Shown: in pieces, positions 29,120 to 31,842 of the stretch
Numbering within the stretch: position 1 is the first letter of the stretch
How the letters are laid out: each line of letters begins with the position of its first letter
NCBI GenBank assembly: GCA_964614535.1
Contig: CAZTOZ010000023.1
Span: 81,552-145,551, forward strand
DNA length: 64,000 bases
Source of the DNA: an uncultured Thiotrichales bacterium
Lineage (GTDB): Bacteria > Pseudomonadota > Gammaproteobacteria > UWMA-0217
Direction of reading: 5' to 3'
The notes under the pieces: model-generated
Databases searched by the model: none
What the model was told of the DNA's origin: nothing
Seen by the model: the letters and a program-made list of their open reading frames with translations, nothing else
Position numbers and translations under genes: made by a program

Positions 29120-30091
29120 ATGAAGGAAAAACTCAGAGTCCGCACGGCCATCGTGCTGCGCACCACCACGGGCGTCTCCCTGGAGGCCGCGCGGCTGGCG
29201 CTGTTCAATGCCCTGCTGGCGCGTCGCTACGACCAGCCGCTGGTGCTGCGGATCGACAATCCGATGGACGACGATGGCGCCGGCACCGAGGCCATGCTGG
29301 ACGATCTGCGCTGGCTGGGGGTGGAGTGGACGGCGGGCCCCGATGTCGGTGGTGAACACGCCCCCTATCTCCGCTCACACCGCAGCAGCATCTACGCCGC
29401 TTTCTACGTCAAACTGATCGAGATGGGGCGCGCCTACCCCTGTTTCTGCACCGAGCGGGAACTGGAGGCCATGCGCCGTGCCCAGATCGCGTCCGGCATT
29501 ACGCCGCACTACGCCGGTGGCTGCAACCGGCTGAACCGGCAGGGGCGCCAGCACCGCATCGACAAGGGCCTGCCCGCCGTGCTGCGGTTCGCCATCCGCC
29601 GGGACTGGCGTTGCCACTACGACGACCTGCTGCTGGGACAGTACCACTGCGGCCCCGACGAGGTGGGGGATTTCGTGATCCGTGGACGCAACGGGGATGC
29701 GCAGCGGGTATTCACTACCACGGTGGACGATGCGCTGTTTGGTGTCACCCACCGCTTCCGTGGCATCGACGAACGCCAGCAGGTGCCGCAACAACTGGCG
29801 CTGGCCGATGCGCTGGGTTTGCCGTTGCCACTCTACGGACATCTGCCGCGGCTGCTGCCGGCGGCGTCGGAACAAGACGGCCTGCCCACGCTGACCTCGC
29901 TGCGCCGGGCGGGCTACCGACCGGAGGCGGTGCTGAACCATCTGGCCCGGCTCGGACACCGTTACGACAGCGAGCTGGTGCTGGACTTCGACGAGCTGGC
30001 CCGCCAGTTCCGCCTCTCCCGCCTCTGCGAGGAGCCGGTGTTCCACCGCCGTGAACGGCTCGACGCCTGGCAGGCGGCGGTCACCGCCTGA
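29120..30091 (+). CDS. glutamyl-tRNA synthetase catalytic-domain paralog (GluQRS-like) with degenerate HIGH and KMSKS motifs
   Basis: Aligns to the GluRS N-terminus (VLRIDNPMDD vs VLRIEDTDLE; CxC zinc knuckle YPCFCTERELEAM; THRFRGIDE vs THVIRGEDH). The HIGH motif is SLEA, and the KMSKS position reads LTSLRR. No anticodon-binding domain is present. Confidence 0.75.
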   Translation: MKEKLRVRTAIVLRTTTGVSLEAARLALFNALLARRYDQPLVLRIDNPMDDDGAGTEAMLDDLRWLGVEWTAGPDVGGEHAPYLRSHRSSIYAAFYVKLIEMGRAYPCFCTERELEAMRRAQIASGITPHYAGGCNRLNRQGRQHRIDKGLPAVLRFAIRRDWRCHYDDLLLGQYHCGPDEVGDFVIRGRNGDAQRVFTTTVDDALFGVTHRFRGIDERQQVPQQLALADALGLPLPLYGHLPRLLPAASEQDGLPTLTSLRRAGYRPEAVLNHLARLGHRYDSELVLDFDELARQFRLSRLCEEPVFHRRERLDAWQAAVTA

Positions 30092-30183
30092 CCGCCACCG
30101 GACGGCATTTTGCCAGCGCGGCTCTCAGGCCGGCCTGATTCCCGTTACAATAACGCCTTTTTCGCCCAAACCCGGCCCGCACC

Positions 30184-31842
30184 ATGGAAGAGAAGAGAAC
30201 CACCAACTTCATCCGTCAGATCATCGACGCCGATCTGGCCAGCGGCAAGGTGGCCAGCGTCCACACCCGCTTCCCGCCCGAGCCCAACGGCTATCTGCAC
30301 ATCGGCCATGCAAAGTCGATCGTGCTCAATTTCGGCATCGCCAAGGACTACGACGGCCGTTGTAACCTCCGTTTCGATGACACCAACCCGGAGAAGGAGG
30401 AGCAGCACTTCATCGATGCGATCCAGCACGACGTGCGCTGGCTCGGCTATCAGTGGGACGGACTCTATTTCGCCTCCGACTACTTCGAACGGCTCTATGG
30501 CTACGCGGTCGAACTGATCGAGAAAGGACTGGCCTATGTCTGCGAACTGACACCGGAGCAGATGCGCGAATATCGCGGCACGCTGACCGAGCCGGGACGG
30601 GAGAGCCCCTACCGCAACCGCGCTGTCGAGGAGAATCTCGACCTGTTCCGTCGCATGCGGGCCGGCGAATTCCCCGATGGCAGCCGCGTGCTGCGTGCCA
30701 AGATCGACATGGCCTCGGGCAATATGAACCTGCGGGATCCGGTGCTCTACCGCATCCGCAGCGGACTGGTCCATCATCAGACCGGCGATGCCTGGTGCCT
30801 CTACCCGATGTACGACTTCACCCATCCGATCTCCGACGCCATCGAGGGGATCACCCATTCGCTGTGCACGCTGGAGTTCGCCGACCACAAGCCGCTCTAC
30901 GATTGGGTGCTGGACAACATCTCCATCGACTGCCACCCGGAGCAGATCGAGTTCGCCCGGCTCAACCTGGAATACACGGTGATGAGCAAGCGCAAGCTCA
31001 CCCAACTGGTGGAGGAGGGGCTGGTCGATGGCTGGGACGATCCGCGCATGCCGACCATCGCCGGTTTGCGGCGCCGGGGTTTCACCCCGGCCTCGATTCG
31101 TGAGTTCTGCAACCGTATCGGTATCACGCGGCAGGACAGCAGCGTCGAGATGGGCGTGCTGGAAAGCTGCATCCGTGAGGATCTCGACGCCAGCGCCCCA
31201 CGCCGGATGGCGGTGCTGAACCCGCTGAAAGTGACCATCAGCAACTACCCGGAAGAACGGCACGAGGCGTTGACCGCGCCGAATCACCCCAAGATCGAAT
31301 CGATGGGCACCCGCACGCTGCCGTTCACCCGTGAAGTGTGGATCGATCGCAGCGACTTCATGGAGGTGGCGCCCAACAAAAAGTTCAAGCGGCTGGTGGC
31401 GGGCGGCGAGGTGCGGCTGCGCAACGCCTACGTCATCCGTTGCGACCAAGTGATCAAGAACGACGCTGGCGAGATCGTCGAACTGATCTGCAGCTACGAC
31501 CCCGACACCCTCGGCAAGAACCCTGAGGGCCGCAAGGTCAAAGGCGTCATCCACTGGGTCTCGGCCCAATTCGGCGCCCTGGCCGAGATACGCCTCTACG
31601 ACCGGCTGCTGAAATCCCCCCAGGCCGGCGACGACTGGAAGAACGATCTCAACCCCGAATCGCTGGTGGTCATCGACACCGCCTATGTCGAACCGTCGCT
31701 GGCCGATGCGAAGCCCGGCGTCCAGTACCAGTTCGAGCGGGAGGGGTACTTCTGCCGCGACAGTGGCAACGACGACCAGCTGGTGTTCAACCGCATCGTC
31801 ACGTTGCGCGACTCCTGGGCCAAGATCGAGCAGCGTAGCTGA
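30184..31842 (+). CDS. glnS: glutaminyl-tRNA synthetase
   Basis: HIGH motif ([14 protein letters not shown]), KMSKS motif (VMSKR), and full-length GlnRS similarity. Confidence 0.95.

Follow-up and report, generated by a model that had tools for sequence, protein, structure and literature searches.

A glutamyl-tRNA synthetase-like protein lacking both class I signature motifs, encoded directly upstream of glnS in uncultured gammaproteobacteria

A 64,000-nucleotide stretch of the genome of an uncultured Thiotrichales bacterium (contig CAZTOZ010000023.1, positions 81,552 to 145,551; hereafter called the window) contains a gene for a 323-residue protein (29120..30091, plus strand) that resembles glutamyl-tRNA synthetase (GluRS), appears to be catalytically dead, and is encoded directly upstream of the glutaminyl-tRNA synthetase (GlnRS) gene glnS. 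GlnRS charges tRNA(Gln) directly, and the second type of GluRS, GluRS2, makes Glu-tRNA(Gln) for transamidation by GatCAB. On balance, we favour the interpretation that this paralogue is the in-place remnant of a GluRS2-type gene which was made redundant by GlnRS, lost its catalysis, and has been kept as a non-catalytic binding protein.

The paralogue corresponds to the first three domains of bacterial-type GluRS, which comprise the Rossmann fold, a zinc-binding insertion and the stem-contact fold. In Pfam it matches a single family, PF00749 (class I Glu/Gln-tRNA synthetase catalytic domain; 133.9 bits, residues 24–315), and it stays below the cut-off of every NCBIfam model. The best of these models, bacterial gltX (TIGR00464; cut-off 289.95), gave 190.5 bits and was covered at positions 17–308 out of 470. 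A first-pass annotation of this gene, made from the sequence alone, had described the product as a GluRS-type catalytic domain without an anticodon-binding domain, and both statements hold. The Pfam scan gave no match to the anticodon-binding domain PF19269, and the protein stops where that domain would start, directly after W317-Q318, the residue pair that closes the stem-contact domain, at about residue 320 of Thermus thermophilus GluRS. Of the features of the TIGR00464 family, the paralogue has the class I fold, but it carries neither the signature motifs nor PF19269 and does not reach the cut-off score.

With the GluQRS/YadB proteins (TIGR03838, NF004312-5) the paralogue has in common that it consists of the catalytic domain only, but it lacks their activation motifs and scores far below the cut-offs of their models (at best 118.3 against 250, and 92.5 against 276.7 for TIGR03838). 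Comparison with Escherichia coli YadB gave 30.3 bits, as opposed to 158.6 bits with GluRS. An AlphaFold2 model of the paralogue has a mean predicted local distance difference test score (pLDDT) of 94.6, and Foldseek searches with this model gave template-modelling (TM) scores of 0.86–0.89 to N-terminal parts of bacterial GluRS, 0.67–0.70 to GluQRS and 0.68 to GlnRS, albeit that the input alignment was dominated by active GluRS, so that the resemblance to GluRS is partly built in. The model shows only that the sequence would be compatible with a GluRS fold. Based on the sub-threshold model scores, the YadB comparison and the TM scores, identity as a GluQRS could be ruled out.

The loss of the active site was analysed in an alignment of the seven family members with 112 full-length nearest relatives and T. 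thermophilus GluRS (120 sequences; the reference sequence is identical to that of PDB entry 1j09). The HIGH position reads S20-L-E-A23 in the paralogue (29177..29188, plus strand), as the first-pass annotation had it: the HVGT motif of Pseudomonas aeruginosa GluRS (PDB 5tgt) pairs with these four residues, and the same register is found in the 120-sequence alignment. In the family as a whole this position reads x-L-[E/D]-x, with T. thermophilus H15 replaced by Ser, Pro or Arg, G17 by Glu or Asp, and T18 (Asn in the relatives with an HxGN motif, see below) by Ala, Ser, Glu or Asp. The KMSKS loop is reduced to a shortened and variable remnant, P247-D253 (PAASEQD; 29858..29878, plus strand). The KLSKR loop of 5tgt pairs with PAA and SEQDG, which are separated by a gap of three positions, and the large alignment places the loop at about A249-Q252. 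Each position of the corresponding PLSKR motif is 99–100% conserved in the 112 active relatives, as opposed to gaps and variable residues in the paralogues. The loss of this motif had thus been recognized correctly, but not its location; the LTSLRR sequence that had been taken for the KMSKS position comprises residues 258–263, is in register with T. thermophilus residues 253–258, and lies a few residues further downstream. Alignment with GluRS catalytic domains hence confirms that both signature motifs are lost, and the possibility that they are present but shifted was rejected, as neither occurs in any family member and the alignments are unambiguous.

The erosion extends well beyond the two motifs. 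In the catalytic domain, 146 columns show 90% or more conservation across the 112 active relatives; of these, 77 are kept by the paralogues, 42 are partly kept, and 27 are lost in all members. The lost or eroded residues (T. thermophilus numbering) are R5; P8, S9, P10 and G12 of the PSPTG loop; H15, G17 and T18; T43, D44 and R47, flanking E41, which itself is Asp in six of the seven members; Y187, N191 (in six of seven members), E207 and W209; and the KISKR loop. The roles of these residues in glutamate and ATP binding are those known from the published structures of T. thermophilus GluRS. Most of the lost columns differ between the seven paralogues, e.g. RRNRSTS in the S9 column, RGRHMRS in the Y187 column and IIWLYFV in the E207 column; since pocket positions vary from member to member, the former pocket has not given way to another conserved one. 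As judged from its sequence, the paralogue lacks every element for glutamate activation or ATP binding, which rules out a function as aminoacyl-tRNA synthetase through the canonical mechanism.

Other parts of the domain are retained, including the hydrophobic core, the LARLGH helix, R214 (T. thermophilus R205) and D203-D204 (D194-D195). The clearest retained element is the zinc knuckle, already identified in the first-pass annotation. It follows the motif CxCx20Yx3C as defined in PMC4381286 (C108, C110, Y131 and C135; 29441..29524, plus strand), is invariant in all seven family members, and marks a putative zinc-binding domain. Several basic residues of domain 2 that are conserved in active GluRS (T. 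thermophilus R163 and K180) have been lost as well.

The closest full-length relatives of the paralogue belong to one particular class of GluRS, as 108 of the 113 nearest full-length matches have HxGN at the HIGH position and PLSKR at the KMSKS position. According to Dasgupta & Basu (2014; PMC3927822), GluRS1 of alpha-, epsilon- and gammaproteobacteria strictly carries an HφGG motif, and HφGN is the form found in GluRS2; the latter serves the indirect pathway, is specific for tRNA(Gln), and occurs in gammaproteobacteria without GlnRS (Thioalkalivibrio, Alkalilimnicola, Halorhodospira). The enzyme of Thioalkalivibrio sulfidiphilus is among the named near matches. Sequence identity of the paralogue to an HxGN enzyme (P0113) is 41–43% (217–223 bits), compared to 30% (133–150 bits) to canonical HVGG-type GluRS, and a PDVGGxHxPY insertion is common to the paralogue and the HxGN type. 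The paralogue therefore groups with HφGN rather than HφGG catalytic domains, although glutamylation of tRNA(Gln) for GatCAB would not be expected of it, as the residues for catalysis are absent. Its match to GlnRS is weak and limited to about 100 residues. The suggestion in the first-pass annotation that glnS is its evolutionary descendant is not borne out, given this weak match and its position in the HxGN branch; the paralogue is no ancestor of glnS.

The strongest clue to this origin comes from gene order. The P0113 gene lies in the order DUF455, an additional gene, lpxH and ppiB (both on the minus strand), GluRS and cysS. In the loci that were fetched, an HxGN-type GluRS gene between lpxH/ppiB (minus strand) and cysS was found in about 55 gammaproteobacterial species, including Competibacteraceae, Aquisalimonas, Ectothiorhodospiraceae, Halothiobacillus and Steroidobacteraceae, and none of these has glnS within 8 kb. 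Two of the paralogue loci (L004 and L007) have the same DUF455-x-lpxH-ppiB block upstream as the P0113 locus. In Pseudomonas the order is presumably lpxH-ppiB-glnS-cysS; the enzyme in charge of tRNA(Gln), of either type, would then occupy this slot. Sequence similarity and synteny, together with the tree described below, lead us to infer that the paralogue originated from GluRS of the HxGN/PLSKR class, a class that has been equated in print with proteobacterial GluRS2.

A full-length HVGG-type gltX was found immediately 5' of glnS in two gammaproteobacterial metagenome-assembled genomes (L101, 5598–8677; L102, 4407–7674), with gaps of 2 and 127 nucleotides, respectively, and the second of these has a divergent lexA upstream, as in the window. 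Descent of the paralogue from such a gltX was rejected on the basis of identity (30% as compared to 43%) and of different insertions and deletions. Three other sequences of the HxGN branch have degenerate signature motifs: P0128 (L094, 238–1620) is full-length and is followed by cysS, P0146 (L095, 7001–8425) is also full-length and is preceded by lpxH, and P0150 (L096, 1054–2061) is an orphan truncated form of 335 residues with 35–38% identity to the family. Catalytic decay of GluRS at this locus may have occurred more than once.

Besides the limit of the structure model given above, several points weigh against the proposed descent and role. First, the assignment of the HxGN class to GluRS2 combines a published motif rule with a single named member, from Thioalkalivibrio. 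Secondly, the neighbour-joining tree in which the family nests among HxGN sequences has neither support values nor an experimentally typed GluRS2 reference, and the nearest sisters of the family in this tree, P0128 and P0146, are themselves motif-degenerate, so that long-branch attraction is possible. Thirdly, the existence of HVGG-type gltX-glnS pairs implies that the two kinds of gene have become neighbours by more than one route, so that synteny cannot decide the matter by itself; moreover, the comparison of gene context covered the fetched loci around the genes rather than whole genomes. Fourthly, a search for a relic of the anticodon-binding domain 3' of the paralogue stop codon gave only noise-level profile matches. 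In L007 (at about 6872–6920), a sequence in frame past the stop codon, LFSSPLRLAISAFKNG, resembles the LFMPLRxALTG motif of the anticodon domain, albeit with a non-significant score of 0.2 bits. Finally, the loss of R163 and K180 makes it less likely that tRNA is still bound in the original way.

The family to which the paralogue belongs is very small. Homologues with the same architecture (323–343 residues) were found at 82, 69, 62, 57, 54 and 43% identity, beyond which scores fall steeply and the next matches are full-length GluRS at no more than about 45%. In a collection of 5.8 billion sequences there are about seven sequence clusters of the family, all from uncultured gammaproteobacteria of a single clade. 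When the representatives of 1.84 billion clusters (50% identity) were searched with a profile, only two family members were returned (554 and 531 bits), followed by a match of 313 bits; two members were found among the GTDB species representatives and one in the JGI metagenomes.

Despite its narrow distribution, the gene has been retained under purifying selection. The open reading frame (ORF) is uninterrupted in all five orthologues for which DNA is available, with identities of 42–82%, and the ratio of nonsynonymous to synonymous substitutions (dN/dS, Nei-Gojobori), calculated where dS is unsaturated, is 0.13–0.30 for the paralogue, 0.08–0.11 for glnS in the same genome pairs, and 0.07–0.19 for the membrane protein encoded upstream. 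A recent pseudogene is ruled out by these data. In the alignment of the seven members 88 columns are invariant. The distribution of this constraint was compared with that in seven active GluRS of similar divergence (mean pairwise identity 0.56 for the family and 0.59 for the active enzymes). The paralogues are less conserved in residues 16–30 (-0.23), 46–60 (-0.27), 211–225 (-0.43) and 241–255 (-0.22), with an overall decrease of 0.17–0.43 over the former catalytic segments. They are more conserved in residues 31–45 (+0.20), 91–105 (+0.43), 136–150 (+0.19) and 271–285 (+0.23). As some segments have gained and the catalytic segments have lost conservation, the constraint has moved and not merely relaxed. 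The strongest gain is in the helix IYAAFYVKLIEMGRA (residues 91–105; 29390..29434, plus strand), with a mean column identity of 0.80 compared to 0.37 in the matched active GluRS, which makes it a candidate for a new interaction surface. There are 27 positions that are constant in the paralogues yet unlike the GluRS consensus, including A94, F95, V97, K98 and I100, and through these five changes a helix that is otherwise polar and variable has become hydrophobic and invariant.

The gene next to the paralogue is a bona fide glnS (30184..31842, plus strand). Its 552-residue product scores 790.8 bits with TIGR00440 (cut-off 425.8), and carries PF00749, PF03950 and PF20974 as well as HIGH and VMSKR motifs. 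The two genes are on the same strand with a spacer of 92 nucleotides, in agreement with the first-pass annotation. Conservation of this adjacency, which had been put forward there as a check, was observed in every context found, i.e. in the window and in relatives with paralogues of 82, 68, 57 and 43% identity (five out of five). The gene order at paralogue loci is a protein with two transmembrane segments, an ORF for a hydrophobic peptide (31–43 residues), the paralogue, glnS and serB, the last of which is absent from the window. The upstream flanks vary, with MatE, DUF455, an additional gene, lpxH and ppiB (the latter two on the minus strand) in L004 and L007, and lexA on the minus strand in the window and in L001.

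Within the spacer, about 33 nucleotides before the ATG of glnS, a TACAAT sequence (30146..30151, plus strand) is found that is probably the -10 box of glnS. It is kept in four paralogue loci (L001, L004, L007 and L009), and also in two glnS loci that lack the paralogue (L098 and L100); in L004 it falls inside the 3' end of the paralogue coding sequence. Since it is kept with or without the paralogue, glnS probably has its own promoter. No terminator-like site was found between the paralogue and glnS. Two ORFs called 5' of glnS in L100 were discarded, as they look like antisense artefacts.

In L098 and L099, the two-transmembrane protein, the peptide ORF, glnS and serB occur without any trace of the paralogue, and the spacer before glnS is 269 nucleotides. 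These loci are nearer to the window group than L007 is, both in GlnRS (84–86% as compared to 78–80% identity) and in SerB (84–85% as compared to 68–69%), and identity of the two-transmembrane protein likewise nests them within the clade. The simplest reading is that the paralogue was lost secondarily and cleanly. A nested lineage that does cleanly without the paralogue indicates that the gene is dispensable.

The constant association with glnS could suggest that the paralogue is a regulatory or accessory subunit which binds GlnRS, tRNA(Gln) or glnS mRNA, by analogy with HisZ, and which possibly arose by duplication and insertion. The adjacency in all five contexts, even though both flanks have been rearranged, the absence of a terminator between the two genes, and the presence of a newly constrained hydrophobic helix and of a conserved zinc-binding domain, a domain for which acceptor-arm and GatCAB contacts have been described (PMC4381286), would all fit such a role. 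However, glnS has its own conserved -10-like element and stands without the paralogue in L098 and L100, GlnRS is an ordinary 552-residue enzyme with no sign of co-adaptation, and conservation does not extend to the 5' leader of the paralogue. We regard this explanation as possible, but rather doubtful. The linkage does not require a common function, as had been supposed in the first-pass annotation.

It seems unlikely that the paralogue is a functionless relic, i.e. a superfluous GluRS copy that is being lost but is not yet disrupted, with conservation reflecting only fold stability or short elapsed time. This would account for the loss and variability of the active site, for a dN that is 2.5–4 times that of glnS in the same genome pairs, for the tiny family and the clean deletion in a nested lineage, and for the occurrence of other motif-degenerate relatives as singletons (P0128, P0146 and P0150). 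It is difficult to reconcile, however, with the observation that synonymous sites are saturated among the most distant members (proportion of synonymous differences 0.79–0.85), yet all five ORFs are intact and 323–343 residues are encoded, or with the low dN/dS values and the 88 invariant columns. Relaxed decay also does not yield segments which are more conserved than in matched active GluRS, and four such segments were found.

For the favoured reading, that of a GluRS2-type remnant kept as a binding protein, we propose the following history. The slot after lpxH-ppiB would have held a full-length HxGN-type gltX before cysS, as it does in related gammaproteobacteria, and a tandem intermediate may then have existed, with the GluRS2-type gene followed by glnS. 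GlnRS would have made the GluRS2-type enzyme redundant, after which the latter may have lost its active site and its anticodon domain. The locus might thus be a frozen intermediate of an in-place swap from the enzyme of the indirect pathway to that of the direct pathway. The paralogue would be kept as a folded, zinc-binding, non-catalytic protein, with selection having moved from the pocket to residues 31–45, 91–105, 136–150 and 271–300, and it may act by binding a partner, either a protein (GlnRS, GluRS or GatCAB) or the acceptor arm of a tRNA. According to PMC4381286, the acceptor arm of the tRNA is held in position by the zinc-binding domain in E. coli GluRS, and in the transamidosome of Thermotoga maritima this domain touches GatCAB. 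A non-catalytic binding role is the most likely one to judge from the pattern of conservation, although it is the weakest step of this proposal; as a sub-lineage has deleted the gene, the role would be helpful but dispensable.

A more specific, but quite improbable, variant is that the paralogue is a 'fossil' transamidosome subunit, in which the zinc-binding domain and the new hydrophobic helix would bind GatCAB and/or tRNA(Gln), thereby coupling the indirect pathway and GlnRS or arbitrating between them. If true, the paralogue would constitute a new type of class I pseudo-synthetase adaptor, as well as a living intermediate in the replacement of GluRS2 by GlnRS. Finally, an enzyme with rebuilt chemistry, i.e. 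a GluQRS-like tRNA modifier or a hydrolase of mischarged Glu-tRNA(Gln), as reported of Helicobacter pylori GluRS2 for excess Glu-tRNA(Gln) (PMC3241645), is very improbable, because, despite the retained fold, zinc knuckle, R214 and D203-D204 and a truncation at the same domain boundary as in GluQRS, the pocket positions appear unconstrained, with no new conserved set of residues in the S9, Y187 and E207 columns, and because, as described above, the paralogue falls far short of the thresholds of the GluQRS models and matches YadB with 30 bits, compared to 158 bits for GluRS.

The genes upstream of the paralogue appear to form a separate unit. The first gene (27437..28345, plus strand) encodes a protein of 302 residues that has one transmembrane segment near each terminus and matches no Pfam family. 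It is present in all paralogue loci, and in the clade it always lies 5' of the peptide ORF and glnS, including the paralogue-less L098; in other gammaproteobacteria, homologues did not turn up at the equivalent loci. The second ORF (28578..28673, plus strand) has a strong ribosome-binding site, GAGGTGA, and probably encodes a small membrane peptide of 31 residues, METRKSSVVKVNMDRVLGLLLLLAALLMLRY. Homologous peptides ending in L(L/M)RY at the stop codon are also encoded in L001, L004 (43 residues), L009 and L098. Two hairpins with T-runs, resembling intrinsic terminators, follow (28705..28765, plus strand; -28 kcal/mol, z = -2.95). The first of these, GTCGCAGGGAAGCGAC followed by six T residues, is nearly identical in L001, L009 and L098 despite varying flanks. 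This hairpin pair closes the unit of membrane protein and peptide, and sets it apart from the paralogue. The 5' leader of the paralogue, of about 360 nucleotides, is not conserved past these terminators. The region 5' of the paralogue was also searched for a conserved leader RNA, a riboswitch or a tRNA mimic; this gave none, as Rfam returned nothing near gathering scores, the window is without tRNAs and the leader is not conserved.

In the relatives, a serB-like gene (ACT domain and HAD-type phosphoserine phosphatase) overlaps the end of glnS, and in L001 (10722–13876) it is followed by a gene for a SulP transporter. Both are absent from the window at 31843–32577, where a gene of the uracil-DNA glycosylase (UDG) family (31966–32577, minus strand) comes next. 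Further upstream in the window (22645–25846, plus strand), a gene for a 699-residue MATCAP/DUF1704-type carboxypeptidase protein directly precedes one for an ATP-grasp ligase resembling glutathione synthetase and RimK; these two could form a pair of peptide ligase and carboxypeptidase.

Several known systems resemble the paralogue in part. Proteobacterial GluRS2 (PMC3927822) provides its closest relatives, with 41–45% identity over the whole catalytic domain, common insertions and deletions, the CxCx20Yx3C zinc motif and the genomic slot after lpxH-ppiB. In contrast to GluRS2, the paralogue lacks HφGN, PLSKR and the anticodon domain, and hence is predicted to be unable to charge tRNA; furthermore, it coexists with GlnRS and is encoded next to it. 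GluQRS/YadB is likewise a stand-alone GluRS catalytic domain with the same boundary and a zinc knuckle, but it retains the catalytic motifs and activates glutamate, and the paralogue is far closer to GluRS (TM score 0.88, as opposed to 0.67–0.70). HisZ is a catalytically dead paralogue of HisRS that serves as the regulatory subunit of ATP phosphoribosyltransferase and regulates HisG. It resembles the present protein as a bacterial aminoacyl-tRNA synthetase paralogue which has lost its aminoacylation motifs and is under purifying selection; however, HisZ is a widespread class II protein with a proven partner, while the paralogue belongs to class I, is restricted to one small clade, and is dispensable. 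The 'non-functional' GluRS2 of T. maritima and acidobacteria is also a second GluRS copy that charges neither tRNA(Glu) nor tRNA(Gln), but unlike the paralogue it is full-length, has recognizable motifs, and stems from a duplicated catalytic domain of the local GluRS1 (PMC3927822). A review from 2022 (PMC9437257) lists no paralogue derived from GluRS with a different role except GluQRS, and our full-text literature searches found no published description of a catalytically dead GluRS without an anticodon domain next to glnS.

The weight of these observations is limited by the small size of the family, its occurrence in uncultured organisms, and its loss in one sub-lineage. The shift from indirect synthesis of Gln-tRNA(Gln), by GluRS and GatCAB, to direct synthesis by GlnRS has long been debated in relation to the evolution of the genetic code. 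The locus described here appears to hold both rival enzymes side by side, with the older one disabled but not discarded, and it adds a class I case to the short list of bacterial synthetase paralogues that are kept without catalysis.

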